This document shows positions 1 to 45,391 of a stretch of DNA of 64,000 bases, piece after piece. Each line of letters starts with the position of its first letter. The first letter of the stretch is position 1. The stretch covers positions 17,863-81,862 of the forward strand of contig CAKPUX010000002.1 in assembly GCA_934193095.1 (NCBI GenBank), written 5' to 3'. Source of the DNA: an uncultured Dialister sp. Lineage in GTDB: Bacteria; Bacillota; Negativicutes; Veillonellales; Dialisteraceae. Below the pieces are notes generated by a model. It was given only the letters and a program-made list of their open reading frames with translations. It had not been told where the DNA came from and made no database searches. Position numbers and translations under genes: made by a program.

Positions 1-59
1 AATATGAAATAAAGTGAAAACAGCGCAGGTCATATCGAGCTTCATGTATGACTTCATAG

Positions 60-883: not shown

Positions 884-3800
884 ATGCAAAGAAAGTGGGT
901 AAAACGGATGGTATTGGCGACCCTGTTTTTGGGAGGGGGCGCATTATTTCCTGCCGGGCAGCAGGCGCTGGCACAGGATGAGGCGGCTACTACAGGCCGT
1001 TCCTATGCGGTTCTGATGGGAGACGAGGATGTGACGCTGAGCGGCTATAAAACATCCAATGTCTATCTTTGGAAGCATGAGAAGGAAGCTCCGGATCAGT
1101 TGATCGGCGGGTCGGTGAAGGTATCCAGTGCCGGCTTACAGAATTCAGGTGACAAGGCAAGGATCACACTGGTCACCGACAGTGATGGGTTAGATCTGTC
1201 CAATGACGCCCAGGTGAAACAGGTGCTGGGGGCTCTGGCAGATAAATTGACATACACCGCATATACCAGGGGCGAAAAAAATCTGGAAGGCACCGCAGAA
1301 ATTTATGAAGGCTTGACCTTTGCTTCCGCTTCCAAGAAATTGTCTGCTTTGGATTTTGATGAAACTACGGGCAAGGCACAGCTGGCTGGAGAGGTCAAGA
1401 CCCCGTATTCCGGTGTCTTAGGTGTCGATGATGAATATGAAAAACGAGGCATCAAACAGGCCGATGGGACGTATCGCTTCCAGGAAGATGCGGTGATTCA
1501 CCCCGGCTTTAATATCACAAAGGATGATAATTACCTGAGAGATTTTGCCTCTGTGATGATTGGCAAAGATACCACCATTGATATGACAGGTCATAATCTG
1601 GATGTCATCATGCATGGCACGATTTATAATGGCGGCGGTTTTACCAATCGTGCGGCAGCTTTGTATGTACCGGGAAATGCGACCTTAACCATTAACAATC
1701 CGGGACAGATCCGTCTGGATACGGACTCTGACTATTATTACTATGCCGATATTGGTGCCATGAAGGAAGACAGCCATGTGGTCATTCATAATGATGACGA
1801 TCCAGCCCATGCCGTAGTGATGCGCGTCACTACCCCACTTAAAGGATATGAAATGAATGTGACTGCGCTGAAAACATTTGCAGGGACCATTGATATTGAC
1901 GGATTGGTCGATATTTATACCAATGGAGGATGGGCGACCAATGCAGCCAGTGGACGGATTTCTATTGGTGGCGGTTCTATTGTGACGCAGGCCTATAGTA
2001 GTGTCACCGCTCGAAGCGGGGGCGTGATGAACGTCAATGTATCGGGGTCTGTAGAAAAGGGATTGACGCCAGGAAATCATACGGTCAATATCACGGCGAA
2101 AGGAGCCACTTCTTGGGATAAAAATAGTTATGCTGCCTTGGCTTCTATGGGAGCCTGGGTAGGTGCAGACACCAATGCTACAGTAAATGCGGCATTGACG
2201 ACGGCAGATTCTACTTTGTGCGGGACAATCAAAGAAGCGGCTGGTACTCGTGATGAAGATACAACTGGTGTTCGTCTTTTCCTGCAGAATGGTGCACAAT
2301 GGACCAATAAGGGATCTTCTTCGATGCGTCATTTGTATGGCGGAAAAGATGCGGCGCATGCTGGGTATATCGATATGTCAAAGCCGGCAAACTCCAACGT
2401 CAATTCTGATCTGACGATTGCCAATTACACCGGAAATACAGTGATTTATTATAGCCAGGAAAGAGGAAGAAAAATCCAGGGAGGAAATATTCACATCGGT
2501 CATGCCGAGATGACAGATGGAAAGAAAGCCTCCATTACGATTCGTACCGATAGCAAGGGAATCAGCCAAAGCAAATTAACCAATGAAAGTTTCATGAGGA
2601 ATATGCTGAATACATTGGCTAATAAATTGTACTATGCGGCTTATGCGGAGGGGGAAAACAATCTGAAAGGAATAGTACAAATTGCTGAAGGGTTGACCAG
2701 CCAGAGTGTTTCAAGGGAAGAAGAGATTCACTTTACCAAAGGCGGCAGTGGCTATGTGGAAGGCTTTAATCAGAAACAGACCGATTTTACCACGGCTTTG
2801 ACTTGGGATATGACCAAAGATGTTGATTATGTAAATGCTAATGTACTGCGGGAAAAGGATAAAGCGACGTTTACAGAAGACACAAGTATCACCGTCAATG
2901 ATGAAGCTGCTATGCAGGCAAAAGGGGGGGATTTCGTAAAGATTGATGCCAAGCAAATCAATTTTAATTTGAAGGCAGCAGGTATTCAGGGTAAGGGAAT
3001 TGAAGTAACTGGTGAAGGCACGGAGTTTGATTTGAATAATCCAGGAGACGTTGAAATTGATGCGTCGACAGGTATAGTGACAGATGGTTCAAGGGCGGAC
3101 TTTGAGTTTAGTGGGGATAACTCTAATATTACCTTGCATCATGCAAAGACTGGTATACTAGCAACAAATAAATCTAATATTCTTATCAAGAATAAATTGG
3201 GTACTACTACCATAAATAATGAAAATACCGATGATTCTACTTTTGTTGGGGTGCAAACTCAAAATGGGGGATCTATTATAATAGCCGGACGGGCGAATAT
3301 AGACGCTGGCGCAGGGACTGCGTTAGCTGCGTTAGGAGGACGTATTGATGTCAATCATGGCGCTACGATTCAAACAAATGGAAGTACAGCGCTGGTAGCA
3401 GGTAATGGTAGCAGAATTTCTATCGCATCTTATAACTTTAACAAGCCAGCAGATATTTCTATTGATGCAGGAGATGGTTTTGCTATCGATGCTAGTGATG
3501 GCGGTTTTACCATTGGTAGTCAATCTGGTAGTCTTCGAACAACTAACGGTACAGTAAATATAAAAGGACATATCAAACTAGGGAAAGGCTATGGCACTTT
3601 AAATCTGACTAAAGAAAATTCCATTTGGACGGGTACGGCTGTGGATGGTACTGATGATGGTAGCGGGGTATTGCATCTCGCTATGGAACCGGATGCAGTT
3701 TGGAATCATGTAGATAAGGATGGTGATGCCGGGAGTGAAGTGAAGGTAGAGTTAGAAGGTGCAAGGTATATCGGATCTTCTGATGATCAGATTACCGTTT

Positions 3801-6800
3801 TGCAAAATAGTAAAAAGGGCATCCATTTTAAGGAGATTAGTCAAGTAGATGGCACGCTCAGACTTGTATTTGCCCATGAGGCAGATTCTCCGACTTCTAT
3901 CAAAGGTGGAAATATCACTATTGATACGGTAAGTACCCGGTATGTGGGTGGTACCGCTAAAGTTTTGGCTGTAACCGATAGTGATGGCATCAATATGTCT
4001 GACGATACCATGGTGGGAAATGTATTAAAGGCGTTAGCCAAGAAGATCACCTATACCCATCCGGAAGAAGCTAAATTAGTCGGGAAAGTAGGGATAGCAG
4101 ATGGCTTGACCGCCAAGAGTGCTATGCTGACAGAAGGGTTTATTCGCTTTGACCCGGATACGGGGGTAGGCAGCTATACACCACAAATGGTGGATACGTT
4201 TACCCGCTCCATGACGGGTGATGAGGCCTACGACAAGATTTATACGGATCAGGGGGTTCGCCAGAGCCAGTTCCTGTATTCCCTCGGGAAAGATACCACC
4301 ATCACCGCCGATAAATCCATGGATTGGAAAGTCAACAGTAATAGTAATGTTGTGCAGATTGTGGGACAGGGACATACGCTGCATCTGGATGCTGAAACCG
4401 CAGGTATTTATATCGGGAATGAAGAGAAAGATACTTCAAAACGTACTCAGCTGGAATTTACAGAAATGCCAGACCTGAATATAACAGCTGGTACAAATGG
4501 TAGTGGGATCCTGGTGAAAAACAGTAGTGCGAACATTGATCTAAAAGATAGCAGAATGCATATAGCAAGTAAAGATGGTGCAAAAGGTTTTGTCGGGATC
4601 AAAGTCGTAGAAGATCGTGATGTGGGAGATACAAAGGCAGGAGATACCAGTTTAAGTGTAGATGGCACTCTGGATATAGAAACGCCAGAAGGAATCGCTC
4701 TTTGGCTCGATGGAGGGAAAGGCTTAAGTCTTCTTAGTCCTGCTAATGTGATTCATGCAGAGGGCGGTACGCTGCTCAAAGTGACTAAGAGTCAGAACAA
4801 TAGTCAAGTTTCCATCAACGGTAAACAGTTAGTCGGAGACCTGGATCTTTTGGGAGCTACTGGCGGTACATATCGGATCACTTTAAATAACGGTGCTACC
4901 TGGACAGGCGGTATTGTTAACGACGTAGCGAAATCTGGCGCAGTTAGTCTTGATCTTTGGAACGATCAGTACAATATCACACCTACCGTATGGACTTATC
5001 AGTGGGAACAGAAAGATAAAGCACAGGATAGCTATATTCACACGGTGGAAGGATGGGCTCCTGGTATCGCTGAAAGTGCTATCTACATGAAAGCGGACAC
5101 AAACTTGACTATCGGCATGCTAAAACGGGGAATCCGAATCCTCTACGATCATGATGCTTCAAATCCAACGCAAATCCTTGGCGGAAATGTAACCATCAAA
5201 GAAGCAAAGAAAGTCGATCCGCAGACCACCCTTTATGTACGGACGGACAGTGATGGGATCAACATGGCAGATGAAACGCAGGTATCCGGTGTACTAAATG
5301 CCCTGGCTCAGAAAATCTACTACAAAGGAACGCCAGAAAACCTGGATAGCTATGCGGAAATCGCAGAAGGCCTGACTTCCGCTTCTGTGCTGAAAACAGG
5401 AAAATTTACCTATGACGAAACAACATATCAGGGTCATTTCTCTGGAGCGATCGAGACGCCTGGTCAGGATGGTACGTTATTTGTTACGCCTTTGTATGCC
5501 CCAAAAAGCTCTGGAAAGGATGAAAATAATACGGCCTATGCCAATGCAGGTGTCCAGCAGGATGGCAAGTACTTCATTTTCCGTAAGGATTCCAGGCTTC
5601 AGATTTCGCAGAGCGGGGAAATGCCTTACACCAGTGCTATCGATGCTTCCAATGACACTGGGGGATATGCAGCCATCAAGATGGACTTGACAGATCATCA
5701 GCTGGATGTACATATCGACGGTGGAGAAGAGGGTCTCAATGAAGCTGTAGCAGGGATCAAAGGGGTTGGCTGGAATGTGTCTGCCCAGAATGGTACCCTT
5801 CATATAGAGGCATCCAATGCCAAGGGGGATGCCATCGGTGTACAGACGGCTGGAAAATCGGAAACTTCTTCCATTATCGATTTGAAAACATTGACTCATA
5901 TTGATGCAAAGACTGGTTTCGACGTGACGGGTGGTACGGTCCGCGTCAATGCAGGAACTATTCATGCGGATACTCTGGGCAGAGTCGGTGCGAATGGCAT
6001 CCTGTCTATCGGAAATACGGGAGATGCGTCTGCCGTATGGACGGGCGACATGTCTCAGAGCGATGGACAGCTGGATATGAACCTGGATGGGGAAGATTCT
6101 ATCTGGACAGGCGCTATGGACTGGACCGGCGGCTCGAACAGCCTGATGCTTACGAATGGAGCGACCTGGAAAAATACCGGGGATTCCCATGTGGGACAGC
6201 TCGTCAGCGGCATTACGAGAAGTGTCGGCGGCGTGATTGACATGACCGGAGATTCTGGAAATATCCAGCTCGATAAGTTCAGCGGAAATGCTTCTATCCT
6301 GTACAAGCATGATGCCAATGACCTGACGAAGGTGTATGGCGGCGATGTGACTGTCACCAGCGCAGAGGCCGGCTCTCGGATCACATTGATCACGGATCGG
6401 GATGGTATCAGCGATGATGGACTTCGTGAAAAGGAAACGGTAAGCTCCCTTTTCCAGGCGATGGCAAACAAGCTGTACTACACCAATTATCAGACAGAGG
6501 GCAATCTCACCGGCATTCTCCAGATTTCGGAAGGGCTGACGGCGAGAGCGGCTTCCAAGGTCACCGGGGCTATGGAATTTGCCGGAGAAAATGGACAGGG
6601 GCAGTATAAAGCGGATAGCGCTTCCCCGTCGATTTATCCGAAAGACCAGCAGAAGGAAACCTTTACGACGGTCATGACAGGTAATGAGAGCACGGATAGC
6701 GAGTACCTCGATGGCGGTGTCATGAAGGTCGGGAATCCTTCGGATATCCGTTATGAATTCACCAAGGATAAGACCGCTGTAGAATTGGCTACGGCTTCTG

Positions 6801-8698
6801 ATACGGCGATCCAGGCGAAAGATACGAAGTATTCCATCGATATGAATGGCCATGATCTGACCATCAAAAACGAAGGGAATGCAGGTATCACCGTAGATGG
6901 CAAAGCCTTGACTTTCCGCAACGGAAAGACCACGGAGCTTACGGCGGACAAGGTCGGTATCGAAGCGAAGAACGGCGGCAATTTCAGTACCTATAACGGC
7001 GGCGTGTGGAATATCAGCGCCGATACAGCGGCGAAGGCCGATGGGGCAGGCAGTTCTATTTCCTTAGGCGCCGGTAAGGTCCAGAGCACCACGCTGGCAG
7101 AAGCTTCGAACGGCGGTACTATTGAGTTCGTTGTACCGAATGACAAGACAGCGACGGAATATGTGGGGGATGTGAAGGTCAATGACGCGGACAGTAAGGT
7201 AAGATTAGGCATTGCTACCGAAGGCTCTACCTGGACAGGCGGTCTGACCAATCATGGCGGCACCTTTGAAATGGGGCTGCAGAATGGCGGCGTATGGAAC
7301 AACACGGGAAAAGAAGAAGCCAATATTTCCCTGCTGGATGCAACGGACACCGGAAATGGCGTGATCTTCCAGAACAAGGACAGCGGCGGTATTACGGTAG
7401 ACCAGTTCCGTGGTCATGCAACGGTGCTGTATAGTCATAATGCAGCAGATCCGACCGATATTCTGGGCGGTGATGTGACGGTCAAGAAGGCCGCCGGCAA
7501 TAGCTTCCTGACCCTGCGGACTGATCGCAGCGGCATCAATATGGGCGATTATCATGGCGTAGAGAATGTGCTCGATGCGCTGGCCAAGAAACTCACCTAT
7601 ACGGATGCGGTCAATGGTGCGACCAACCTGAATGGCCGGGTAGAAATCGCAGAGGGGCTCACGGCTGCGAGCGCTGCTAAACAGTATGGTACGATCGATT
7701 TCAATAAGACCACGGGACAGGGTAGCTATAAAAAGAACAGCATGACGCCAGGCGAGGCGGATCCGGATATCATCTGGGGCAGCTCGGAAACCATGATGAT
7801 GCGTGGTGCGAAGAATGCCATGAATACGTCTATGTTGTCCTGGAGAAGCAATGTTTCCGATATGACGACTCGTATGGGAGATCTCCACTATGGCGTGGAT
7901 GATGGGATCTGGGCAAGAACCTTCGGTGGAAAGATCAAGTACGATAAAGGAACCTCTTCCTTCAGCAATAGCTTCTGGGGCGCGCAGGTCGGTGCGGATA
8001 AGCTCTTCAAGAATGGCTGGCATTTTGGCGGTGCTTTCGACTACAGCAAGGGAAGTGCCAAGTATGAAATGGGCGGCGAAGGGGATCCCAAACTCTACAC
8101 CTTCTCGCTCTATGGCACGAAGCTTTTCGAGGATGGTCAGTATGTAGATATCGCTGTCAAGGCAGGTCACACGACAAACAGCTATACCGTATACAATGAT
8201 ATGGGACATAAGCTGGATGGGGACTACAGTGCTAATGGCTTCGGCATTTCTGCGGAATACGGAAAACGGTTTGGCGGGGCCGATGGCTTTGTGGAACCAC
8301 AGCTGCAGCTGACGCTTTCCCGCCTTGGAAGTGCAGACTATGATGGCATCAGTGACTATACCGGCGGAAAGAAAATGCACGTCAGCCAGGACGGCATGAC
8401 CAGCTTCATCGGCCGTCTGGGTGTAGCCGCAGGAAAAACAACGGAACGCGGTAATTTCTATCTGAAGGCAGGCTTGCTCCATGAATTCAGCGGAAAAACA
8501 AGCACGACATTCAGCGCAGAAAATGAACCGACCTCTACCGTGGATCAGGACTTTGGTGATACCTGGGCAGAATTGACTCTGGGCGGTACCTATAGACTGT
8601 CTCCTTCGAGCATGCTTTATGGTGATATTACCAAGAGCTTTGGTGGAGATTACAAGGTACAGTGGAAGGCCAATGTGGGTGTCCGCTTCACCTTCTGA
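884..8698 (+). CDS. Giant classical (type Va) autotransporter, 2604 aa
   Basis: RBS aaaggagaaagg lies upstream. Signal peptide MQRKWVKRMVLATLFLGGGALFPAGQQALA/QDE. The C-terminal ~300 aa have autotransporter linker and barrel hallmarks (MMRGAKNAMNTSMLSWRSN..RMGDL, GIWARTFGGK, FWGAQVGADK, terminal VGVRFTF). The passenger is built from six super-repeats. Confidence 0.9.
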   Translation: MQRKWVKRMVLATLFLGGGALFPAGQQALAQDEAATTGRSYAVLMGDEDVTLSGYKTSNVYLWKHEKEAPDQLIGGSVKVSSAGLQNSGDKARITLVTDSDGLDLSNDAQVKQVLGALADKLTYTAYTRGEKNLEGTAEIYEGLTFASASKKLSALDFDETTGKAQLAGEVKTPYSGVLGVDDEYEKRGIKQADGTYRFQEDAVIHPGFNITKDDNYLRDFASVMIGKDTTIDMTGHNLDVIMHGTIYNGGGFTNRAAALYVPGNATLTINNPGQIRLDTDSDYYYYADIGAMKEDSHVVIHNDDDPAHAVVMRVTTPLKGYEMNVTALKTFAGTIDIDGLVDIYTNGGWATNAASGRISIGGGSIVTQAYSSVTARSGGVMNVNVSGSVEKGLTPGNHTVNITAKGATSWDKNSYAALASMGAWVGADTNATVNAALTTADSTLCGTIKEAAGTRDEDTTGVRLFLQNGAQWTNKGSSSMRHLYGGKDAAHAGYIDMSKPANSNVNSDLTIANYTGNTVIYYSQERGRKIQGGNIHIGHAEMTDGKKASITIRTDSKGISQSKLTNESFMRNMLNTLANKLYYAAYAEGENNLKGIVQIAEGLTSQSVSREEEIHFTKGGSGYVEGFNQKQTDFTTALTWDMTKDVDYVNANVLREKDKATFTEDTSITVNDEAAMQAKGGDFVKIDAKQINFNLKAAGIQGKGIEVTGEGTEFDLNNPGDVEIDASTGIVTDGSRADFEFSGDNSNITLHHAKTGILATNKSNILIKNKLGTTTINNENTDDSTFVGVQTQNGGSIIIAGRANIDAGAGTALAALGGRIDVNHGATIQTNGSTALVAGNGSRISIASYNFNKPADISIDAGDGFAIDASDGGFTIGSQSGSLRTTNGTVNIKGHIKLGKGYGTLNLTKENSIWTGTAVDGTDDGSGVLHLAMEPDAVWNHVDKDGDAGSEVKVELEGARYIGSSDDQITVLQNSKKGIHFKEISQVDGTLRLVFAHEADSPTSIKGGNITIDTVSTRYVGGTAKVLAVTDSDGINMSDDTMVGNVLKALAKKITYTHPEEAKLVGKVGIADGLTAKSAMLTEGFIRFDPDTGVGSYTPQMVDTFTRSMTGDEAYDKIYTDQGVRQSQFLYSLGKDTTITADKSMDWKVNSNSNVVQIVGQGHTLHLDAETAGIYIGNEEKDTSKRTQLEFTEMPDLNITAGTNGSGILVKNSSANIDLKDSRMHIASKDGAKGFVGIKVVEDRDVGDTKAGDTSLSVDGTLDIETPEGIALWLDGGKGLSLLSPANVIHAEGGTLLKVTKSQNNSQVSINGKQLVGDLDLLGATGGTYRITLNNGATWTGGIVNDVAKSGAVSLDLWNDQYNITPTVWTYQWEQKDKAQDSYIHTVEGWAPGIAESAIYMKADTNLTIGMLKRGIRILYDHDASNPTQILGGNVTIKEAKKVDPQTTLYVRTDSDGINMADETQVSGVLNALAQKIYYKGTPENLDSYAEIAEGLTSASVLKTGKFTYDETTYQGHFSGAIETPGQDGTLFVTPLYAPKSSGKDENNTAYANAGVQQDGKYFIFRKDSRLQISQSGEMPYTSAIDASNDTGGYAAIKMDLTDHQLDVHIDGGEEGLNEAVAGIKGVGWNVSAQNGTLHIEASNAKGDAIGVQTAGKSETSSIIDLKTLTHIDAKTGFDVTGGTVRVNAGTIHADTLGRVGANGILSIGNTGDASAVWTGDMSQSDGQLDMNLDGEDSIWTGAMDWTGGSNSLMLTNGATWKNTGDSHVGQLVSGITRSVGGVIDMTGDSGNIQLDKFSGNASILYKHDANDLTKVYGGDVTVTSAEAGSRITLITDRDGISDDGLREKETVSSLFQAMANKLYYTNYQTEGNLTGILQISEGLTARAASKVTGAMEFAGENGQGQYKADSASPSIYPKDQQKETFTTVMTGNESTDSEYLDGGVMKVGNPSDIRYEFTKDKTAVELATASDTAIQAKDTKYSIDMNGHDLTIKNEGNAGITVDGKALTFRNGKTTELTADKVGIEAKNGGNFSTYNGGVWNISADTAAKADGAGSSISLGAGKVQSTTLAEASNGGTIEFVVPNDKTATEYVGDVKVNDADSKVRLGIATEGSTWTGGLTNHGGTFEMGLQNGGVWNNTGKEEANISLLDATDTGNGVIFQNKDSGGITVDQFRGHATVLYSHNAADPTDILGGDVTVKKAAGNSFLTLRTDRSGINMGDYHGVENVLDALAKKLTYTDAVNGATNLNGRVEIAEGLTAASAAKQYGTIDFNKTTGQGSYKKNSMTPGEADPDIIWGSSETMMMRGAKNAMNTSMLSWRSNVSDMTTRMGDLHYGVDDGIWARTFGGKIKYDKGTSSFSNSFWGAQVGADKLFKNGWHFGGAFDYSKGSAKYEMGGEGDPKLYTFSLYGTKLFEDGQYVDIAVKAGHTTNSYTVYNDMGHKLDGDYSANGFGISAEYGKRFGGADGFVEPQLQLTLSRLGSADYDGISDYTGGKKMHVSQDGMTSFIGRLGVAAGKTTERGNFYLKAGLLHEFSGKTSTTFSAENEPTSTVDQDFGDTWAELTLGGTYRLSPSSMLYGDITKSFGGDYKVQWKANVGVRFTF

Positions 8699-8730: not shown

Positions 8731-8781
8731 TATAACAAAAAACTCGTGAATCGTAATGAGATTCACGAGTTTTTTGTTATA
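8731..8781. terminator. Bidirectional rho-independent terminator
   Basis: Palindrome TATAACAAAAAACTCGTGAATC ... GATTCACGAGTTTTTTGTTATA, 33 nt after the autotransporter stop. Confidence 0.85.
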
Positions 8782-8919: not shown

Positions 8920-8948
8920 TTGACTGTATGATAATCATACGGAATATC
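8920..8948 (+). promoter_or_regulatory. Promoter (-35 TTGACT) with Fur-box-like operator, copy 2
   Basis: TTGACT at 8920-8925 followed by GTATGATAATCATAC (8926-8940). The core ATGATAATCAT equals the centre of the classical 19-bp Fur box GATAATGATAATCATTATC. Confidence 0.6.
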
Positions 8949-8949
8949 A

Positions 8950-9200
8950 TTTCCTTAATGAAATGGTATGGGGAATGCTGGTGTAAATCCAGAACTGTCC
9001 TGCAACCGTATGGGGAGAAGGTTCATTGCACGTCTTTCACAAAGAAATGAATTCATCGAGGAACTAAGTCGGAGTGCCATGCTTTTTCGTAACTATCACA
9101 TCATGATGGTGTTCAAAGATCTGCGAGGTATGGGTCGGATAGAGTGATATTTCTTTTGTGATGCTCAAAATCCGGTCTATACTTGGCAGCTTTTTTATTT
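8950..9200 (+). promoter_or_regulatory. Cobalamin riboswitch-like leader with intrinsic terminator, copy 2
   Basis: GGGGAATGCTGGTGTAAATCCAGAACTGTCCTGCAACCGTATGGGGA, B12-box-like AGTCGGAGTGCC, and terminator arms 9121-9140 / 9170-9189 followed by a T-run (9191-9196). Relative to copy 1 the internal stem sequence differs while the loop ACGTCT.TCACAAAGA is conserved (covariation). Confidence 0.7.
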
Positions 9201-9233: not shown

Positions 9234-12200
9234 ATGAAAAAGGAAATGAAAAATTGGCTTCGCAGTAGCATTGTTTTGGCTTTGGCGGCGGGTGCCTTGG
9301 TCGGAGGTTCGTCTGTGCAGGCGGCTAATACGTATGATATGACCCAGGGGGAGTTTCTGACCAATGGACTCAATTATACGACTACGAACACGTACCAAGA
9401 TAGGGATACATTGATTTATAAATGGGATGCAAAAAACAAGAAAATCATTGGGGGAAATGTTAGCGTTGGTCAAGATGTCTTGAATTCATCTTATGATGGT
9501 GTCAATGTGAATCTGGTGATTGATGCATCAGATTTGTCGAGTATGAGCAACGATGATGTCAAAGAAGCTATGACGCAGTTGGCCTCTAAAATTAAAAATT
9601 ATGCAGAGACTAACCGATATCGGCTGAATGCCTATGTACAAGTACGAGAAGGATTGACCGCTTCTTCCAAGGTTCTTCGTTCTTATCAGTTGGAATACAA
9701 AACTCCTGGTTGGAATGATCCAGATCAAGAAATCAAACCAGATGCAAATGTCGGAGATCTAGAGGAGGGTGTCTTTGCCACTTCTATTATCAATGGCGCA
9801 GCAGGCAGTGAATATGAATTTGATGAAAATGGGGTTTGGCGATATAAAGGCTTTAGAGGAGCAGTGGATGTTAATTTTACTACTCCCGCTACAGATAATG
9901 TGTATGCGGCTATTCGTACAGATGGGAAAGATACAGGAATTTCAAATCTGACGGAAAATAGTTCGTTCAATTCTACTTTACAGATGAATGCAGATGCGTC
10001 TTCTTTAGCTGATTCCAAAGCTTACTTGGCGTATAGTGGGACAGGAAATCAGGTCAGCGTGATTGCTAATGAATTGAATGCTACGGTCAAAGGGACGGAA
10101 GCAACTGGGATTTATGCAGGGCATGAAAATGGTGATACCACGAGTAAGGTAGTGGTTAATGGTGGCATTAATCTGACATTGGATGGTAAGAAAACTACTG
10201 GTGTTGAAGCAGGAAAGAATGGGGAAGTCTCCTTATTAACTGGTCAGAAGACTTATAATAGAACCAATACTGTTAGTATTGAATCACCCAATGGTCATGC
10301 CGTATATGCACATGACGGAGGTAAGGTTACTTTAGATGCTGTGAAAGTCAAGAAAGCAGATAAATCTGCCATTTACGCAGAAAAAGGTGGCAACATCACA
10401 CTGGGCATTGTAAGTGGGTTAACAGATGAATCGATTAGTACAGATGACGATGCAGATAGTCAGGTCTCTTTATCTGTGGATGGAAATTACACAGGGCAAG
10501 TTAAGGGGAATGTCAATGTAGCCTTTACTAAGGGTTCTACTTATAAGGCAGATAATGATAGCATTGGCACTGTGACTTTGAATGGTTCCACATGGGTGGG
10601 TTCCATGTTGCGTGATAATGGCTCGGTATCGATCAATTCTAATGGTCAGTGGAATATGGGAGAAACTGGTCGAGATATCAAATTATCTGCTTTGACCGGC
10701 GGTAAAACGACGGCCAGTCGTGGCTATGTGAAGATGGGCAGTGATAATCTTCACATCGGTACTTACAGTGGAAATGGCACATTTATTTATGATCATGATG
10801 CTTCTGATCCGACGAAGATTCTTGGTGGGAACATTACTATTGAAGAATCTAAGCCACTAAGTCTTTCTAGCTCTGGTTTAGGGGATAAGGGTGATTCTAC
10901 GGCAGAGGGAACTTCCGCATCTACGATTGCTATTGCTACCGATAGTGCCGGTATCGATACCACGGATAATGCTTTAGTTGAAAAAGTGCTGGATAATTTG
11001 GCAAGTAAATTGGCTTATCTGAACTATACTAAAGGGGAACGCAACTTGAGTGGTACCGTAGAATTGTTGGAAGGACTGACCAGTAGTTCTGTGACCAAGC
11101 ATTTTGCCAATCTGACTTTTGATGAAAAGACTGGTCAGGCCAAACGGGATTCGGAAGTCTATCATCCCTATGTCACCTATATCACAGGGGACGCTTCTAT
11201 CGATACGGCCTATGCAGATGCTTACAATGCAGATACCAATACCTATGATTTCAATCAGGATGTATTTATTCGAGAAGCAAAGTCTACAGATTCCGTTTGG
11301 ACTCGTGGCAGCTTGTACTATGGGCTGATTACCAATTATGGGACAGAATACGAGAAGCCAAGTAAAGGTTGGGGTATGTTTAAGAGTTCTAAACCAGATG
11401 GTGGCCCTTCCTATACAATGGATCTTCACGGAAATAATTTGACTGTTGATTTGGAAGCCTTCCCTGAAGCAAATGCCACAGGAAGCCAGCCTATGTGGAC
11501 TACAGCCGCTATCATGGCAGCTCGTGAAGGGACCATTACAATCACCAATCCTGGGGAAATTCATCTGACTTGCAATGCCAATTACTATTATGGTAGTGCC
11601 ATTCGCGCTTCGACCAGTGCTGGTACGACGAATGGTGCCCATGTAATCATTGAAAATGATCAGGGAAATTTGAAGGACCATATCGTATACCTTCGTGGTG
11701 GCATTGATACACCAGGGTATCAGCTTGATTATCGTACTATTGAGACTTACGGGAATGCTAAAGCTAAGGATATAACACAAGAAAACTCGGTATACATCAA
11801 AGGCCTCGTAGACATTGAAGCAGATAAGCATGCGGCTGTTTTTGCACGAGGCGGTTGGATTCGTCTGGGTGGTGGTCGTATTTCTGTGGATAATTACGAT
11901 GCGCTTTGGACGGCAGGTAAGGGTCGCATTGATATCAATATGCTGGTCGATGATGATGGCACTGTGAAAGGTGCTGGCAGTAATGATTTTGTACTGAAGG
12001 GTAATGCAGTGACCGCTACTCCTTACTATGGGAATAAGGGGACATTGAATTTGGCCTTTACCACAGCAAACTCCAGGTTTGATGGGGAAACTGGAGGTAC
12101 CGGTGAACAGAATCTCTATGTACAAAATGGAGCGGTTTGGAACAATACACCAGAATCGTATAACATCTGGAATTCCGGTGAAGTTGTAAAATCAGATCTA

Positions 12201-13652
12201 GCAAGTATTGCTACCCATTTATACGGGGGACAAGATGCAGCGCATACAGGTTACCTGATTCAGGACAGTGCGAAAGATTTAACAATTAAGAATTATAGTG
12301 GCTTTATGAAAGCCTATATAGCACGGGATAAATCCAAATCTGCAGGTGAAGATGGAACTGATGCAACTAGCCAGTTTAGTCAAAAAGGAAATATTATTAT
12401 CGAAAAAGCGGATCAGACAGATGGACAGAATGCAGATTTCACTTTATTGACAAGTCAGGAAGGCATTGACACTTCCAATAAAGAAGAAGTACTTTCAGTA
12501 ATGAAGGACTTGGCTGGCAAGCTGATCTATAAGGAGGCCACTGACAGTGAAAATCCGGCAGTTCATCTTAATGGACATGTAGGCTTGGCAGAAGGGCTGA
12601 TTGCTGGTTCAGTAGAAACGAGATTGGCTGATTTGACGTTTGATGGGACGTCCGATGGAACGGGTAGTGTCGTGGATAGTACCTATCAGATTCCGAAGAA
12701 TTATCCGGCTATCCTGTATGGACCTAAAGAAACTGCTATGATGCGTGGTGCTAAATCTGCCATGGCTTCTACAGCTATGATTTGGCGGGCTATCAATAAT
12801 GACGTGGAACGCCGGCTGGGCGATTTACGTGTAGGCAATGCTGAAAAGGAAAATGGTATGTGGGCTAAAGTGGGCGCTGGGCGTATGTCTTACGACGAAG
12901 GAACCACAGATTTCCGTACCCGCTTTAATGAATATCATATCGGTTATGATCATGCCGTAGGCAATGCAGGATGGAGAGCTGGTGCTTCTGTCAGCTACAT
13001 CGACGGGAAGAGTACCTATGAAAAGGGGACTGGTGATAATGATGTAACCAATTTCCATGTATATGCTACAAAGACCATGCAAAATGGGGCTTACTTGGAT
13101 ATCATTGGCAGAGTTAGCCATGCCAAGAATAAGTATCGTATTATGAACGATGCAGGGAATAAACTGGACGGCGATTATGGAACCAATGGATATGGTCTAT
13201 CTGCAGAATATGGGAAACGGTTTGTCAAAGATAGTGGATTCTATGTAGAACCACAAGCAGAACTGACTTGGGGTAGATTATCTGGCAAATCTTATGATGC
13301 TGCTAGTGATTATGGCGGAGGCCGTGCATTGCATGTCGATCAGGATGATTTTAATAGTTTGATTGGACGTATCGGTGTTGGATTTGGTTTAGTGAAAGAA
13401 CGAAGCAGCATCTATGCAAAACTTTCGCTTCTCCATGAATTCCAAGGTGGTTTTGATACACAGTATACGGCAAAAGGTGAACCTTCTAATGCGACACATA
13501 TGGACTTTGATGGTACTTGGGTATCTGCTATGTTTGGCGGTACATACCAGCTGGGAGACAGAGCCAATTTCTATGGGTATCTGGAAAAGACTTATGGTGG
13601 CGATTTAAAGACCGATTGGCGCTATAATGTAGGACTTCGTTTTACCTTTTAA
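9234..13652 (+). CDS. Classical autotransporter, 1472 aa
   Basis: RBS gagaggag. Signal peptide MKKEMKNWLRSSIVLALAAGALVGGSSVQA/AN. C-terminal translocator (MMRGAKSAMASTAMIWRAINNDVERRLGDL, GMWAKVGAG, terminal VGLRFTF). Three copies of the conserved module occur in the passenger. The central region is homologous to the N-terminal part of the 2604-aa protein. Confidence 0.9.
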   Translation: MKKEMKNWLRSSIVLALAAGALVGGSSVQAANTYDMTQGEFLTNGLNYTTTNTYQDRDTLIYKWDAKNKKIIGGNVSVGQDVLNSSYDGVNVNLVIDASDLSSMSNDDVKEAMTQLASKIKNYAETNRYRLNAYVQVREGLTASSKVLRSYQLEYKTPGWNDPDQEIKPDANVGDLEEGVFATSIINGAAGSEYEFDENGVWRYKGFRGAVDVNFTTPATDNVYAAIRTDGKDTGISNLTENSSFNSTLQMNADASSLADSKAYLAYSGTGNQVSVIANELNATVKGTEATGIYAGHENGDTTSKVVVNGGINLTLDGKKTTGVEAGKNGEVSLLTGQKTYNRTNTVSIESPNGHAVYAHDGGKVTLDAVKVKKADKSAIYAEKGGNITLGIVSGLTDESISTDDDADSQVSLSVDGNYTGQVKGNVNVAFTKGSTYKADNDSIGTVTLNGSTWVGSMLRDNGSVSINSNGQWNMGETGRDIKLSALTGGKTTASRGYVKMGSDNLHIGTYSGNGTFIYDHDASDPTKILGGNITIEESKPLSLSSSGLGDKGDSTAEGTSASTIAIATDSAGIDTTDNALVEKVLDNLASKLAYLNYTKGERNLSGTVELLEGLTSSSVTKHFANLTFDEKTGQAKRDSEVYHPYVTYITGDASIDTAYADAYNADTNTYDFNQDVFIREAKSTDSVWTRGSLYYGLITNYGTEYEKPSKGWGMFKSSKPDGGPSYTMDLHGNNLTVDLEAFPEANATGSQPMWTTAAIMAAREGTITITNPGEIHLTCNANYYYGSAIRASTSAGTTNGAHVIIENDQGNLKDHIVYLRGGIDTPGYQLDYRTIETYGNAKAKDITQENSVYIKGLVDIEADKHAAVFARGGWIRLGGGRISVDNYDALWTAGKGRIDINMLVDDDGTVKGAGSNDFVLKGNAVTATPYYGNKGTLNLAFTTANSRFDGETGGTGEQNLYVQNGAVWNNTPESYNIWNSGEVVKSDLASIATHLYGGQDAAHTGYLIQDSAKDLTIKNYSGFMKAYIARDKSKSAGEDGTDATSQFSQKGNIIIEKADQTDGQNADFTLLTSQEGIDTSNKEEVLSVMKDLAGKLIYKEATDSENPAVHLNGHVGLAEGLIAGSVETRLADLTFDGTSDGTGSVVDSTYQIPKNYPAILYGPKETAMMRGAKSAMASTAMIWRAINNDVERRLGDLRVGNAEKENGMWAKVGAGRMSYDEGTTDFRTRFNEYHIGYDHAVGNAGWRAGASVSYIDGKSTYEKGTGDNDVTNFHVYATKTMQNGAYLDIIGRVSHAKNKYRIMNDAGNKLDGDYGTNGYGLSAEYGKRFVKDSGFYVEPQAELTWGRLSGKSYDAASDYGGGRALHVDQDDFNSLIGRIGVGFGLVKERSSIYAKLSLLHEFQGGFDTQYTAKGEPSNATHMDFDGTWVSAMFGGTYQLGDRANFYGYLEKTYGGDLKTDWRYNVGLRFTF

Positions 13653-13781: not shown

Positions 13782-13894
13782 TTTATGAGGAAGGGGAGAG
13801 TCCTTCACATAGAAGCAGGTGTGATTAGGCAAAATCCTGCACACAATTATTGCCTGTTCGTTGTTGGAGCCTTGATAACCATAAATAGGGGACT

Positions 13895-13925
13895 TGACTA
13901 TATGATGGTCATACGGTTGATACTA
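13895..13925 (+). promoter_or_regulatory. Promoter (-35 TTGACT) with Fur-box-like operator, copy 3 (no riboswitch downstream)
   Basis: TTGACT at 13895-13900 followed by aTATGAtggTCATAc (13901-13915), then ttgatact as a possible -10. The leader to the receptor gene is only about 90-100 nt. Confidence 0.55.
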
Positions 13926-14019
13926 AATAAGAATATAAAGTATAAAAGGATAGGTGTCATATTTTATTTCATGCCCCATATTCATCGAGCAAGAGGGCAA
14001 AATGGAAGGACTGGAGAAA

Positions 14020-16656
14020 ATGAAGAAATGGAATTCATCTTGGCGTAGGGAGTCCAAGAAATCTTACCTAACAATTGGCTTACTGCTAGGAATGATCTCT
14101 ATGGGACAAATGTCTGTGTCCGCTAACGAACCAGAACAGGCGGAAGGACCCATATATACATTGCAAGGGATTACTGTAGAGGCTAAAAGGCCAGATTGGG
14201 AAGCAAAGCTTTCTCCGGGGACTGTCACCGTGATTCGCCCTCAGGATTTCAAAGGGGAGCAGAAGACGCTGCCGGATATGCTGAAAACGGTGCCTGGTGT
14301 CCATGTGCGTGAAGTGAATGGGCATGGACAGTATACGACGGTCACGGTGCGAGGCTCTACCGCGGCACAGGTCGGTGTCTTCATGGATGGGATACTGACA
14401 AACCTCGGGGGAGATGCTGCCGTCGATATTTCCACCCTTCCGGTCAAGAATGTGGAGCGTATTGAAGTGTATCGCGGCTATGTGCCGGCACGTTTCGGCG
14501 GGACTTTTATCGGCGGTGTCATCAATATCGTGACAAAGAAACCGGATAAACCCGGCATTTCTGCAGAAGTTGGAAAGAGCTCTTATGGCGGGAAGAGTAT
14601 GTCCCTTGAGTACACGGCTCCACTGGCAAGTGGTACGTTGATGGTGGCAGGAAATTATGAGTCAAGTGATAACGATTTTTCCTATACCAACTATGCGGCG
14701 GAAAGATATATCCCCTATTTGGAAAAGCAGATTAAGGGTTACCAGGGTGTAGTTGATAATTTCAATAAGGATAAAATAGACTTTTTTACAGAACCTACCA
14801 AAAATGATTGGGGGGAGGAAGGAACTCCGCTGGTTTCACTTACGCAGGATGAAATCGATCATTTCAAGAATAATCCGAATGACTGGCTGGAGTTTGTTCG
14901 CGGAAGCGGAGAGTATAGCCTTGCAGGAAAATTGACAGAGAATGCAGGAGAGACAGGCCTTGATGCAAAGGATATAGCGGATTATAAGACACAGGCAGAT
15001 CCGGAAACGAGCCCTGAACTAGCTGAATATAACAAAACAACCAAAGCGTATATCGACAAATTGAAGGAAGCCAAGGAGGCTAAACGCTGGCGCAAGTATA
15101 ACGATTATAAAAACAGCAGTGCGTTGGTCAAGTGGCAGAATGAGAACTGGGTGGTGAAAGGTTCCTGGAATCGGATTGACCGCCATTTGCCGGATGGACT
15201 TTGGGGTGGGAACGCGAATCAGGCAATCGAGAACAATGCTGTGGATTTGCGTGACCTCTATCGATATGATAGCCGCCATCAGAAATTGGATAATACGGAG
15301 GTGATGGTGCAGAACCGGAATCAGAATGGCCGTTTGGAATGGGGATGGACGGCGGACTACCTGCATCAGAAAAAGAGTTACCGGGCGGAGCATATTGTAC
15401 AGGATGCAGTGACTGATTTTGATGAGCTCAATACACCTCTTCGTAAATGGAGCCGTTATACATCCAATAAGTATAATCTGCAGCTGGACGGGACGTACAA
15501 GATTTCCGAGCGAAACATGCTGGATTTCCAAACGAATATGTCTCATGAACGGTTAAAAATCAATGGGTCTTTGATGGATAAGGTGCTGGGGGATTCTGAT
15601 CTTGGGAATGTTTTAGGACAGACCAGGAATCGATATGATCAGGATATATGGAATGTGCAATTGCAGGATACGATTACGCTGGACAAGAAGTCCAGCTGGT
15701 TTCTGACACCAAGTCTTCGTTACAACCGTTCAAAAGTCACTGGCTACAGTGACGGGAAGCGATTCGCGGAAAATCAGGAAAACCGATTCCACTGGATTCA
15801 TCCGAAGGACAGTCAGGTGGATGATAAGGTAACCTGGCAGTTGGGCTTAAAGAAAATAGTCAATGACCAGCTGACGCTTCGCATGACAGGCGGGACGTAC
15901 TATCGTCTTCTTAATATGTATGAGATTGCAGGGGATGGCGCAGGGATTCTTCCGGCACCGAGAAAGGATGCGCAGACTTCTACCTTCCCACTGCCGGAAG
16001 AAGGAAAGCAGTTCGACATAAGCGCCATCTGGAAAGGGAAGCTGCTGCATGCGGATAATAGTACGCAGCTGACATATTTCTGGAGAGACTCGACCAATAT
16101 GCTGCAGCTGGTACGCACCGGGAAAGATTACTGGTCATATTTCAATGATAATCGCGGCAAGGTACATGGCGTGGAATTCCAGTCCAATTTCAGCTGGAAG
16201 AAGGTAGATCTGGATTTGCGGGCCACTTATATGCAGACACATATGCAAAGGAAAAATAGTGCCGTAGGCTATGGTTATTCGGATATCTGGGCTACCTATC
16301 AGCCGGAGTGGGAAGGGAATGCAAGATTGACTTATCGCCCAAACCAGCATGTGGATCTATTTGGCGAAGTCCATTATACCGGTGGTTATTATACGGATTG
16401 CAGTAAAGACCCCAAGGGTGGTGAGTATGCGCATTTGTCAGGGCGGCCGGTTAATGCACTGACGACCATCAATGGCGGTGTGAAATGGAAACCGGCTGAC
16501 AGCTGGCAGTTTACTTTTGGCTGTAATGACATATTCAATAAGGGACCGAAGATGAAGATCCGAAGTAATACAGCTTTTACGGTGCCGGGATACATTAATC
16601 CGGAATTTCCTATCCAGGGGCGGACGTATTATGCATCGATCCGTTATCAATTCTAA
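14020..16656 (+). CDS. TonB-dependent outer-membrane receptor (about 880 aa)
   Basis: Signal peptide ..LLLGMISMGQMSVSA/NE and a TonB-box-like YTLQGITVEA. Plug motifs VTVRGSTAAQVGVFMDGI and IERIEVYRGYVPARFGG..GGVINIVTKKP. Terminal GRTYYASIRYQF. The start is ambiguous (ATG 14002 or 14020); the track start at 13954 is unlikely. Confidence 0.88.
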   Translation: MKKWNSSWRRESKKSYLTIGLLLGMISMGQMSVSANEPEQAEGPIYTLQGITVEAKRPDWEAKLSPGTVTVIRPQDFKGEQKTLPDMLKTVPGVHVREVNGHGQYTTVTVRGSTAAQVGVFMDGILTNLGGDAAVDISTLPVKNVERIEVYRGYVPARFGGTFIGGVINIVTKKPDKPGISAEVGKSSYGGKSMSLEYTAPLASGTLMVAGNYESSDNDFSYTNYAAERYIPYLEKQIKGYQGVVDNFNKDKIDFFTEPTKNDWGEEGTPLVSLTQDEIDHFKNNPNDWLEFVRGSGEYSLAGKLTENAGETGLDAKDIADYKTQADPETSPELAEYNKTTKAYIDKLKEAKEAKRWRKYNDYKNSSALVKWQNENWVVKGSWNRIDRHLPDGLWGGNANQAIENNAVDLRDLYRYDSRHQKLDNTEVMVQNRNQNGRLEWGWTADYLHQKKSYRAEHIVQDAVTDFDELNTPLRKWSRYTSNKYNLQLDGTYKISERNMLDFQTNMSHERLKINGSLMDKVLGDSDLGNVLGQTRNRYDQDIWNVQLQDTITLDKKSSWFLTPSLRYNRSKVTGYSDGKRFAENQENRFHWIHPKDSQVDDKVTWQLGLKKIVNDQLTLRMTGGTYYRLLNMYEIAGDGAGILPAPRKDAQTSTFPLPEEGKQFDISAIWKGKLLHADNSTQLTYFWRDSTNMLQLVRTGKDYWSYFNDNRGKVHGVEFQSNFSWKKVDLDLRATYMQTHMQRKNSAVGYGYSDIWATYQPEWEGNARLTYRPNQHVDLFGEVHYTGGYYTDCSKDPKGGEYAHLSGRPVNALTTINGGVKWKPADSWQFTFGCNDIFNKGPKMKIRSNTAFTVPGYINPEFPIQGRTYYASIRYQF

Positions 16657-16666: not shown

Positions 16667-19600
16667 ATGATGTGGAAAATGAGTAACAAAAAACGCAAGA
16701 TGGCTTTCCTGACTGCTCTGATAGGGAGCCTCATGGCGGGATCCAGTGTAGGGGCGGCCAACCTGATGGCAACGATCCCATCGGATTATCACAATAGCCA
16801 GATGGGGGGCGTGACAGGTTCCCGCGTGACTACAACGGTTGATGCGGCTCCAGTGGTAGGAGCGGTGAAGAATTTGAACGGGGATCCGGCTACGTTCTCT
16901 GTGTTTATCAACGGAGAAAGCCAGATTTTTCTTCGTCAGTATACCTATAGTACCGTCGCATTAAAGGGCAGTGTATTGATGGATGCAGATGGAGATTGGG
17001 CATCTGTCAATAATCCAACGGGAGAAATTACGGCGGTACCAAATGCACATGCAGCAGTTGGCTATTGGAATACCCTTTATACGACAGGTTATGATAATGG
17101 GCAAATTGGCCTTGCGAAGGTTAATGGTAAGCAGCTGGTCGAGAATAAACTGAAGACGGTCAATCTAAAAACAGATATCAAAGAAAAAACGGGGGATGTA
17201 GATGCTGCCTCCTATGATACCTACAAGGATACAAATGGAAAGGTGCAATTCACCAGCGTCCATGGTGAAGGTCTTCTCATAAAGGATGGATATTTGTATG
17301 TGGCGGCCAGCGTTAATAAGAAAGGTGGCACTGACGATTATGATAATGGCTACCTTTTGCAATATAAGATTAAAAATGATGGGGGTCTGGAGTATCGAGA
17401 TTATGCCCGTATCGGAAAGAATACGAACAATGTTCGGCTGAATTCATACAATAATCTGATTCTTGCAACAGCTGTTGGCGGGTATCAGCATTATGGAAAG
17501 TTGAATCCGGAATCGGCTCTCAATTATGTGGATGTGTCGGATAATCATATCGGGCAGATACATGAGACGCGATCGGTTCATCTGCCTGAACAGGTCAAAA
17601 ATGACGGATATGATTTCCGTGATATGAAGGTACTGCCGGATGGTACTGTTTATGTGATGAAGTATACTTTGAGTGCTACAGGAGGGGAATTTACCGGCCG
17701 TGTGTACCAGACGACCATGGCCAATCTGATGTCGAAAAATCCCGATGATTGGCAAGTGGTTTTGGATGGGAAAGTAGATGATGGTTGTTTTGGTCGGCTG
17801 AATGCGGAGTATTATACCAAACGGTTATGGGTAGAATGGGGTAACAATCTCTATGTGTACGAAGATGGAGATACGAAACCTACGCACCAATGGGTGACGA
17901 AGGACTTTTCTACTGACACGCAGTTCTATCAGTTCAATTCAGTCACCATGTTGCCGACCGACCAGGTCTGGGGAAATCTTGCCAAGTTAACGACGTATCG
18001 TCCTGAAGGTTTGACTGCGTCTTCGGAAACAAAAATCACCGTGGAGAATGCAGATGCCAAGGTAGGAACTGTGACTAGAAAAGCGGGCATTACGGGGACA
18101 TCGGCGGACCAGACAGCTTTTAGTGATGTCACTTCAGATGATGGAACGTATTCCTTTACCAAGGATGAAGTGCTGAGCATCAATCTGGGGAAAGAAGGGG
18201 ATCATGCCACCAATGCAGCAGCGGTCATTCAGGCGAAAGATGGGAAGGACATCACGATCGATGCTTCTGGACACAGCCTGCAGCTGGCTTCTAAAAACTA
18301 TATAGCATCTCCTGTCGGCATTTATGCCGGAAATGGTAAGAATGTATCGATCACAGCAGACAAAGTGGATGTCGTGACTTCTGGATATTCCAGCGGGAAT
18401 TCTTTGACCAATGCGATCTGGAATGATGGCGGGAAAAATACAGCCAGCCAAATCACTGTGAATGGGGATGTCAATATTTCCATGTCTGGTGGTTACGGCG
18501 GTAATGGTGTCGCTATCCAGAAGTCGTTCCGCTGGGGAGAAAACAGTCAGGAATCGACGGCATCTTCTGCTATTACGATTCATGGCAATCTGAAAATTGC
18601 CGGGGAGGACAGTGCAACGTGGGGCATTCCTGTTAATCGGGAGAATGTTTTGTCTCGTTTTAATAATGCAGGTATCCTGACGAATATTGAAAAAAGCAAA
18701 GTCACTGTCACTGGTGATGTAGATATGGCGGTGTATGGCAATGGGATCACCACCAATGCAAGAGATAGCGAGGTATCCATTGGCGGCGGACATATTACTG
18801 TGCCGCAGGGAACGAAATACGGCTATTATACACTGGGTGCCTATGCAGGTACGATCAATGTCAATATGAATGAGGCAGGCTCCGCAGCCGGTACACATGA
18901 TGTACAGCTGGATGGAGATGTATTTGCTTTAAAATCGACGGGCACCATCAACTTGGGGCTGACAACGAAGAATTCCTACTTGAATGGTATCATTGACAAT
19001 GGCGGCAAGGTCAATATGTGGCTGCAGAATGGAGCCGTCTGGACCAATGAAGCGAAAAATACCCGCTATAAACAGGACGATGAGGATGTAGGAAGCAATG
19101 AGGTCAGCCGTGTGACATTCCTGCATGGGGGTACGAAGTCCGGTACCAGTGATACAGCGGGTGTCATCATTCAAACAGAAAACAGCAAGTCGCTGACGAT
19201 CGATAAATTCTCTGGAGCGGCCAAGGTACTGTACTCACATGATAGCAATACCCCCACGAAGATATTGGGCGGGGATGTGACCATCGGCAGCGCTATTCGT
19301 GGGTCAGAAATCGTTCTCCGGACGGATTATGATGACAACATGCAGTCTGATGCAGTAAAGAATCAGGTTTTGAATGCATTGGCGAAAAAGCTGTACTATA
19401 AAGATGCCGTCAATGAAAAAACTGCCCTTTCAGGGAAAGTGGAAATCGCGGAAGGCCTGACGGCTTCCTCTGCGGCTAAATATATCGGAAATATTGCATT
19501 TAATCAGACGAATGGGCAGGGCAGCCTTGGCAGTGGAGAAACGCCGGAACCTCCGGCTGAACAGTCGAAGACACTCTTCACGTCTTCGATGACTGGCGGA

Positions 19601-45076: not shown

Positions 45077-45391
45077 TTTCGTATCAGCACCTTCTTTCCC
45101 TTAAAGTATAGCAAAAATTAAGGGTATTTTGTATCCGGCTACATAGTAAGTCAAATTGCCAAGCCTTTAGCGTGAAGTGAGGAGCCATAACGCATCATTT
45201 GAAAATTTGAAGTTCTCCTGGCCGATTAGCAAATGAATGGCTTCGATCCGTATTATATCAATCAGTCGACAAGTGCTTCATTTCCGCTGGGGATGAAGGG
45301 AAAGACGGATGATCATTGTGCTGGGGAGAGTATGCGCCGGATATCAATCAGGAAAATCAAAAACGGAGGCGATAGCGTATGGGAGAAAACG

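Follow-up and report, generated by a model that had tools for sequence, protein, structure and literature searches.

The DNA analysed here (the window) is a 64,000-nucleotide (nt) stretch from an uncultured gut Dialister species (GenBank assembly GCA_934193095.1, contig CAKPUX010000002.1, positions 17,863 to 81,862 of the forward strand), and the region at positions 8,950 to 9,200 is almost certainly a cobalamin (vitamin B12/corrinoid) riboswitch. It begins at the transcription start site of an autotransporter gene, and a second leader of the same kind precedes another autotransporter gene upstream. Control acts, we think with good confidence, through the intrinsic terminator that closes the leader. 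Our fullest reading, put forward tentatively and at a little under even confidence, is that the two leaders and their relatives in Dialister and other Negativicutes belong to one natural family of transcriptional riboswitches activated by corrinoids, in which an L5-L13 kissing loop would serve as the antiterminator and would switch on giant autotransporters, atop a MerR-type promoter that a BtuB-like receptor gene has as well. The features of both leaders and the genes that they adjoin lie on the plus strand of the window.

An Rfam scan of the whole window gives a single match above the curated cut-off, RF01689 'AdoCbl-II' at 8955-9087 (41.3 bits against a cut-off of 36.5, E 1.8e-6). What a model's note on the bare letters (the sequence-only reading) had called a riboswitch-like leader is therefore a cobalamin riboswitch of Rfam, a family that the note had left unnamed. 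We refer to it as copy 2. Copy 1 occupies 477-782 and consists of a promoter (477-507), an aptamer (521-652), a terminator (702-774) and a U8 tract (775-782). Its aptamer matches RF01689 at 31.2 bits (E 5e-4) under relaxed thresholds, which is below the cut-off. A covariance model of the leader finds two copies only in the 64 kb, at 505-661 and 8939-9096. The motif ACGTCTNTCACAAAGA likewise occurs exactly twice in the window (596-611 and 9030-9045; 0.06 occurrences expected), as the description of this region as a second copy had it. Each copy has a promoter at its start, a long intrinsic terminator at its end and an autotransporter gene downstream.

Relatives were collected by pattern scans of species-representative genomes and metagenomes and by an autotransporter-passenger protein search, followed by contig look-ups. 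About eleven distinguishable lineages with the leader were obtained from Dialister and other Negativicutes. They comprise orthologues of copy 1 and copy 2 in several Dialister species, the Dialister lineages L027b, L045, L032, L015 and the L004/L017/L020/L028 group, and, outside these, L007 (a Negativicutes metagenome-assembled genome), L010 (Selenomonadales), and L037 and L049 (both metagenomic). L027b, L007 and L032 score 39.3, 37.2 and 36.3 bits on RF01689, respectively, and L010 and L037 score best on RF00174, which they pass. The leader RNA is predicted to bind a corrinoid.

The aptamer of copy 2 is composed of P1, P3, P4/L4, P5/L5, P6 and a B12-box-like J6/3 segment (9058-9079), and its four-way-junction core helices P3-P6 are borne out by covariation. 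A MAFFT alignment of 20 sequences was used to count pairs in P3, P4, P5, P6, the 11-bp P7 and the 5-bp P8, and the controls were slid alignments, with the 3' partners moved by 1-3 columns; one MAFFT alignment in which P3/J3-4 was misaligned was left out of the counting. Standard pairs fill 94.2% of the cells, against 40-50% in the slid controls. Both sides are altered in 19 of the 31 pairs, and the observed covariation score exceeds that of every column shuffle, so that the covarying pairs on which the sequence-only reading had staked its claim of a structured RNA are present in the wider alignment. A model-fitted alignment with more sequences, which is biased to the structure by construction, gives 93.4% paired cells and 22/31 double changes. 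Within the core, double changes affect 3/5 pairs of P3, 2/4 of P4 and 1/3 of P6, P5 is invariant, and 89-100% of the cells are paired; the model-fitted alignment adds changes in P4 (3/4) and P5 (1/3). The GGGAAU motif, L4 GGUGNNAAUCC, the L5 region CUGNCCNGCAAC and the B12 box of J6/3 are nearly or fully invariant among the 20 sequences and align to the model consensus. Both copies carry 59 nt in P6 where the RF01689 model has a 5-nt loop. In copy 2 this P6 extension (9017-9057) is built from P7 (9017-9027 with 9046-9057), a GCACG bulge (9028-9032), P8 and a CAC triloop (9038-9040). The sequence of P7 is entirely different in each lineage and is complementary in every one, with 10/11 pairs double-changed in the MAFFT alignment and 11/11 in the model-fitted one.

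The intrinsic terminator of copy 2 spans 9121-9196. Its 5' arm, CUGC-G-AGGUAUGGGUCGGAU (9121-9140), is followed by an apical hairpin (9141-9169), the 3' arm AUCCGGUCUAUACUU-G-GCAG (9170-9189) and a U6 tract (9191-9196). Both terminators were called from minimum-free-energy folds (-37.9 kcal/mol for copy 2 and -49.6 for copy 1) together with U6-U8 tracts, and the stems end 0-1 nt before the U6 and U8. A simple terminator scanner, restricted to uninterrupted stems with loops of 3-8 nt, called neither of them because the stems are long and interrupted. Across lineages, 91% of the cells in the lower stem are paired (27-43% when slid), and nearly all of the variation is on the 3' side. The two copies show the same asymmetry, with 27/29 identical bases in the 5' arm as opposed to 14/21 in the 3' arm; variable columns number 4 in the former and 10 in the latter. 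The sequence-only reading had substitutions in the 5' arm matched by compatible changes in the 3' arm. One pair does so in the strict sense (5' U to C and 3' A to G, turning U-A into C-G), and beyond it the claim was overstated, as the remaining five differences are confined to the 3' arm and keep or restore pairing through G-U. The 5' arm has the consensus A-Y-C-UGC-N-AGGUAU-R-G-G-R-U-N-GGAUA and is constant even where P3/P1 vary. Such conservation goes far past what a terminator needs, and since it holds where P3/P1 change, it would imply that the 5' arm has a second partner.

The nucleotides 9121-9140 also belong to a hairpin, P13/L13. The P13 element (9093-9142) pairs CUAUC (9093-9097) with GAUAG (9138-9142) in an outer helix and GAUCU (9118-9122) with GGGUC (9132-9136) in an inner helix, which closes the 9-nt loop L13 (GCGAGGUAU, 9123-9131). 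A lineage-specific hairpin is inserted at about 9098-9112, and most lineages have such a variable hairpin between the outer and inner helices. The corresponding strands of copy 1 are AUAUCC (656-661), GACCU (699-703), L13 (704-712), GGGUU (713-717) and GGAUAU (718-723). Among the lineages the inner helix has 4-5 bp (GAUCU/GGGUC, GACCU/GGGUU, GAUC/GAUC, CAUC/GAUG) and is 100% paired; two of its pairs are double-changed, with the alternatives G-C/G-U/C-G and C-G/U-A/U-G. The outer helix has 5-6 bp (AUAUCC/GGAUAU, CUAUC/GAUAG, CUAUCU/GGAUAG, AAUCC/GGAUU), and its 5' strand invariably stands immediately 3' of the 3' strand of P1. When the nascent transcript is folded as it stands ahead of 3'-arm synthesis, P13 comes out as the minimum-free-energy structure in copy 1, L027b and L032, and also in copy 2 with variant outer pairs. 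The columns used by both P13 and the terminator covary with both partners. As L13 and the 3' strands of P13 are the very nucleotides of the terminator 5' arm, the two folds are mutually exclusive. The same design recurs in a different sequence in L037, where P13 reads AAUGAU.GUUUG[CUCGGUA]CAGAC...AUCAUU and a long terminator base again starts in L13.

P13 stands where the family has its kissing-loop hairpin (PMC10327014). The aptamer half of the candidate kissing loop is L5, UCCUG at 8998-9002, placed by the Rfam alignment; the family consensus is UCCCG, and its consensus and role are described in PMC10327014. L13 offers C(G)AGG, which is complementary to the CCUG of L5. In Dialister the two loops can form either four Watson-Crick pairs with a bulge or 4/5 continuous pairs with a central C.A mismatch, and the sole variable position of L13 in this genus (G/A/U) is the proposed bulge. 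Every lineage retains the complementarity to L5, and compensating variants occur in L007 (UCUUG/CAAGG, 5/5) and L049 (UGCCG/CGGUG, 5/5). This covariation over three variants is suggestive of L13 as the partner of L5. The candidate kissing-loop bases lie within the 8 bp that close the terminator stem beside the U tract. Two other elements were considered as L13 and rejected, namely the hairpin inserted between P1 and the 5'-arm block and the apical loop of the terminator. The loops of both are unconserved and have no complement to L5, and the inserted hairpin is absent in L017/L020.

Mutational work on two model riboswitches has yielded a rule that relates platform layout to the sign of regulation (PMC10327014). 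In repression, P13 and the terminator are separate and are bridged by an antiterminator, whereas in activation the terminator uses some of the nucleotides of a P13 that the kissing loop stabilises. The same work produced synthetic activators through a terminator 3' arm complementary to L13 (PMC10327014). By analogy with this rule, the layout found here predicts that the corrinoid switches the gene ON, a sign to which we give even chances. The folding energies are -10 to -15 kcal/mol for P13 and -38 to -50 kcal/mol for the terminator. Because P13 is so much the weaker, the default state would be termination, and a corrinoid would lead to read-through. Specifically, without corrinoid the weak P13 would be displaced by the terminator, and transcription would halt before the gene. 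With corrinoid, the L5-L13 kissing loop would hold the nucleotides that otherwise close the terminator stem by the U tract; RNA polymerase would then read through, and the autotransporter would be expressed.

Several observations weigh against activation through L5 and L13. Nearly all characterised cobalamin riboswitches repress, and only one natural activator has been reported (PMC10327014). The TonB-dependent receptor encoded next to the autotransporter has a BtuB-like plug, and a B12-capture locus would predict repression. The L5/L13 covariation comes from three L5 variants, and one two-lineage swap scores equally. The Dialister kissing loop is imperfect, having either the C.A mismatch or the bulge with 4 pairs; P13 includes a three-way junction; and its inner helix is one pair short in L045. 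In L007 the geometry looks nearer to the repressing, conventional type.

The same cobalamin riboswitch might thus be an OFF repressor, which we consider possible, if on balance doubtful. An antiterminator would hold the 5' arm in the absence of B12, and B12 would free the arm to form the terminator. The P13-like fold might itself play this part, or else the 5' arm might pair with the aptamer or with the 3' strand of P1. The adjacent BtuB-like plug suggests a corrinoid-uptake locus, which would suit such a repressor, and L007 may possess a separate antiterminator. A classical antiterminator can also be drawn in copy 2, where GGUAUGG of the 5' arm pairs with CCAUGCU of the P3/P1 3' strand at -17.7 to -21.6 kcal/mol. 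This pairing is not conserved, however. The P3/P1 3' strand shifts (from CCAUG to CCGCU in L017) with no change in the 5' arm, and the energies fall to -9.5 to -13.5 kcal/mol in copy 1, L032 and L017. Against the aptamer as a whole (the P3/P1 3' strand and the L5-P6 core), shuffled arms give duplexes at least as strong as the best ones of the 5' arm. With this shuffled-level pairing, and with no covariation between the 5' arm and P3, we rejected an aptamer-based antiterminator as a conserved feature. P13 is the only alternative fold backed by covariation; since it sits in the position of the kissing-loop hairpin, the ligand should stabilise rather than break it, and because it is far weaker than the terminator, the default looks terminated.

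The sequence-only reading had looked for the kissing-loop partner elsewhere, in the internal hairpin, whose conserved 16-nt 'loop' (ACGUCUUUCACAAAGA, 9030-9045) was taken to be single-stranded. This is very unlikely. The segment is highly conserved between copies and lineages, its U-CAC-A is near-invariant, and its CAAAGA is found also just 5' of the terminator. It is not a loop, however, but a 5-nt bulge, the covarying 5-bp helix P8 and the CAC triloop, and is thus mostly paired. P8 joins UCUUU (9033-9037) to AAAGA (9041-9045), which are replaced elsewhere by CCUUU/AGAGG, UUCUU/AAGAA, CUCUU/AGGAG and CCCCU/AAGGG, and 3/5 of its pairs are double-changed (UA/CG, CG/UA and UA/CG). The segment has no complement to L5 UCCUG and lies within the aptamer, in the P6 extension, whereas L13 of the family lies in the expression platform (PMC10327014). 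The platform block UGC-N-AGG (9123-9128) is a better partner for L5. The 5' bulge varies little (GCACG, GCAAG, GUAAG and similar); it (GYAAG/GCACG) and the U-CAC-A at the tip of P8 (together 9028-9045 and 592-611 in the two copies) are near-invariant amid variable helices, which points to a possible tertiary contact. As a separate candidate, a pairing between L4 and P8 (GUGAGA/UCUCAC, perfect in copy 1) was discarded, as it is not kept in L032, L007 and L049.

Comparison of the two copies agrees with a functional RNA. Their aptamer cores are nearly identical, as had been noted from the letters, with 46/51 bases shared in the 5' half and 22/24 in J6/3 and the B12 box. The internal stem is exchanged with its pairing kept, from AAAGAAGCAG/CUGCUUCUUU in copy 1 to GGUUCAUU/AAUGAAUU in copy 2, where 10 bp are reached if a bulge and a mismatch are allowed. 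The P7 strands share 6/11 and 7/11 bases, the segment between the strands of the internal stem (the bulge plus P8) 15/19 and the linker 14/46. In the wider alignment compensatory changes are abundant, and the paralogous copies are kept as separate orthologues. As the two paralogous leaders persist in several species, the duplication is old. Wherever the downstream DNA is known the leader precedes a large signal-peptide protein, and each of these that could be examined is a homologous autotransporter; the L004 and L015 loci stop short of the gene. A mobile repeat at unrelated loci is ruled out, as far as sequence comparison goes, because the leaders consistently precede homologous autotransporter-type genes. 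That the leader is recently duplicated DNA or a mobile repeat merely resembling a riboswitch is hence scarcely credible and is refuted as far as sequence data can refute it: the copies are 8.4 kb apart with identical promoters and L035 carries a decayed relative, but the Rfam score exceeds the curated cut-off, the stems differ in sequence and retain their pairing, both copies are distinct orthologues in several species, the relatives all stand 5' of homologous autotransporter genes, and there are only two copies in 64 kb.

Further forms of the leader were met among the relatives. At L035 2570-2719 lies a riboswitch relic (38 bits) with degraded core and B12 box and an intact promoter and palindrome. 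In a copy-1-type leader at L027 1925-2100 the aptamer is separated from P13 by about 170 inserted nt, which by eye resemble the sequence 3' of the L035 relic. The autotransporter homologues of L034, L039 and L043 have no riboswitch. In L040 a homologous autotransporter gene (P0009) has two tandem classic RF00174 cobalamin riboswitches (1883-2060 and 2158-2319; 108.8 and 70 bits) about 700 nt to its 5' side, with a 57-aa open reading frame (ORF) and a terminator-like hairpin between. Group II intron fragments (RF01998 and RF00029) occupy 88-156 and 359-430 of L032, directly 5' of the riboswitch promoter. Both Dialister-type leaders, near-identical to those of the window, are present on contig CAVBQN010000004.1 (L002, L014) of a metagenome-assembled genome labelled Fusicatenibacter saccharivorans; this contig is probably a binning contaminant. 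Dialister L003 has a third, different cobalamin riboswitch (3971-4083, plus strand) just 5' of the part that corresponds to the window, with L5 AGACC and a short P6 hairpin. It precedes a gene for a 237-aa protein and an OmpH/Skp-like chaperone gene, and the corresponding genes end at window positions 1-15. In its platform (AUCUGCGGGAGU...) a candidate P13 apparently lies inside a long terminator. If the L003 arrangement holds, the whole cluster would have three B12 riboswitches.

The gene after copy 2 (9234-13652) encodes an autotransporter of 1472 aa with a signal peptide, a repetitive passenger and a C-terminal beta-barrel (PF03797 at E 4.9e-36; the EspP, Hbp and BrkA barrels matched in PDB). 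That after copy 1 (884-8698) encodes 2604 aa with a C-terminal autotransporter beta-domain. The two are paralogues made of repeated modules. A comparison of the autotransporter passenger with PDB and Pfam matched the beta-barrel only and showed no sign of a B12-binding domain. The TonB-dependent receptor gene (13954-16656) follows the second autotransporter gene, and its plug domain is most similar to that of Escherichia coli BtuB (1e-18; the next different protein is at 3.6e-14). It has no riboswitch of its own and is preceded by a copy of the promoter and palindrome at 13894-13914. Next comes an ORF of 4065 aa (16667-28864, plus strand) without Pfam match. The order of autotransporter, then receptor is kept in L032, L034, L040 and L045.

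The copy 2 promoter (8920-8950) has a -35 element TTGACT (8920-8925), a 19-nt spacer containing the palindrome GTATGATAATCATAC (8926-8940) and a -10 element TATCAT (8945-8950). A sigma-70 promoter scanner limited to 16-18 nt spacers did not call it. TTGACT, a 19-nt spacer and TAnCAT are common to three transcription units on the plus strand (promoters at 477-507, 8920-8950 and 13894-13914), namely the first autotransporter, the second autotransporter, and the receptor plus the giant ORF. The palindrome in the shared spacers is GTATGAnnATCATAC, with TATATGATGGTCATAC at the third site. The motif is also found 5' of homologous autotransporter or receptor genes in L032, L034, L035 and L037. In L034, L015, L003, L009, L011, L002 and L022 the locus adjoins a MerR-family gene (281-309 aa, with a C-terminal domain without assignment). 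The shared promoter geometry reads as MerR-type. A Fur box was considered for the palindrome, and a MerR-type site was preferred, since the spacer has 19 nt and a MerR gene is linked.

Two other regions of the window deserve a record. A near-perfect palindrome of about 20 bp, ACAAAAAACTCGTGAATC...GATTCACGAGTTTTTTGT, lies between A and T runs at 8731-8781, downstream of the first autotransporter gene. It probably acts as a bidirectional terminator and was the source of several spurious low-score Rfam matches. Positions 44030-52805 hold a Fic-like gene, a HipA_C-domain gene, ORFs without family match and a serine recombinase (CcrB/XisF-like). The cluster may be a mobile or toxin-antitoxin island that has integrated here, and is unrelated to the riboswitch.

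The cobalamin riboswitch family has been known for two decades, and as a riboswitch this leader is ordinary: it belongs to a known family, and copy 2 is recognised by Rfam. What is new is the autotransporter regulon and the predicted ON-type platform. Full-text literature searches combining cobalamin riboswitch with autotransporter, Dialister or Veillonella found no relevant paper. The pairing of the leader with giant autotransporters in several Negativicutes, beside a BtuB-like receptor, hints that diderm Firmicutes of the gut and mouth have a corrinoid-linked surface system that has yet to be described. If our reading is true, B12 would be an inducer of cell-surface remodelling or corrinoid capture, beyond feedback repression. 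A conserved family of activators would also mean that ON logic is natural and recurrent, and would supply parts for B12 biosensors. A leader placed on a MerR-type promoter would be a tractable case of two-signal control, by initiation and attenuation.

Among known systems, the closest by aptamer are the members of Rfam clan CL00101 (RF01689 'AdoCbl-II' and RF00174 'Cobalamin'). Like them, the leader has the P3-P6 four-way junction, GGGAAU, L4 GGUGNNAAUCC, an L5 UCCUG close to the consensus UCCCG, P6 CCG/CGG and the B12-box-like AAGUCGGAGUGCC. Unlike them, it carries a 59-nt hairpin (P7, bulge, P8 and CAC triloop) instead of the 5 nt of RF01689, simpler than the P6 extension of RF00174; it regulates giant autotransporters; and one of its two copies, copy 1, scores below the cut-off. 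The classic Cbl-I riboswitches (RF00174) have a multi-helix P6 extension where a single bulged hairpin is found here, and RF01689 outscores RF00174 for both copies. Cobalamin riboswitches of the clan control genes for B12 uptake, B12 synthesis or B12-independent isozymes; the genes downstream here are those of autotransporters, followed by that of a receptor with a BtuB-like plug.

By platform layout, the leader resembles the activating cobT riboswitch of Alkalihalobacillus halodurans (PMC10327014), in which P13/L13 also shares nucleotides with the terminator 5' arm and a bulged kissing loop of about 4 pairs has been proposed. It differs in that L13 itself, besides the 3' strand of P13, makes the terminator base, in that P13 has an inserted hairpin, and in its unusually long terminator (about 27-40 bp). 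The gene is that of a surface protein rather than cobT, and the ON sign is predicted here. With the repressing metE riboswitch of Priestia megaterium (PMC10327014), it has in common the aptamer, a P13/L13 hairpin after P1, an intrinsic terminator and the C-C/U-G bases of L5 as the proposed kissing-loop core. In metE, however, P13 and the terminator are separate, and the 3' strand of P13 joins the 5' arm of the terminator to make the antiterminator. Here one set of nucleotides serves as both strands, and folds and shuffled-arm pairing revealed no third structure.

At the level of the locus, the counterpart is found in Bacteroides, where B12 riboswitches control outer-membrane capture by BtuB together with the surface proteins BtuG and BtuH. 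There, as here, a B12 riboswitch stands beside a BtuB-like receptor and large surface-exposed proteins. Here, in contrast, no riboswitch precedes the receptor gene itself, and the surface proteins are type V autotransporters.

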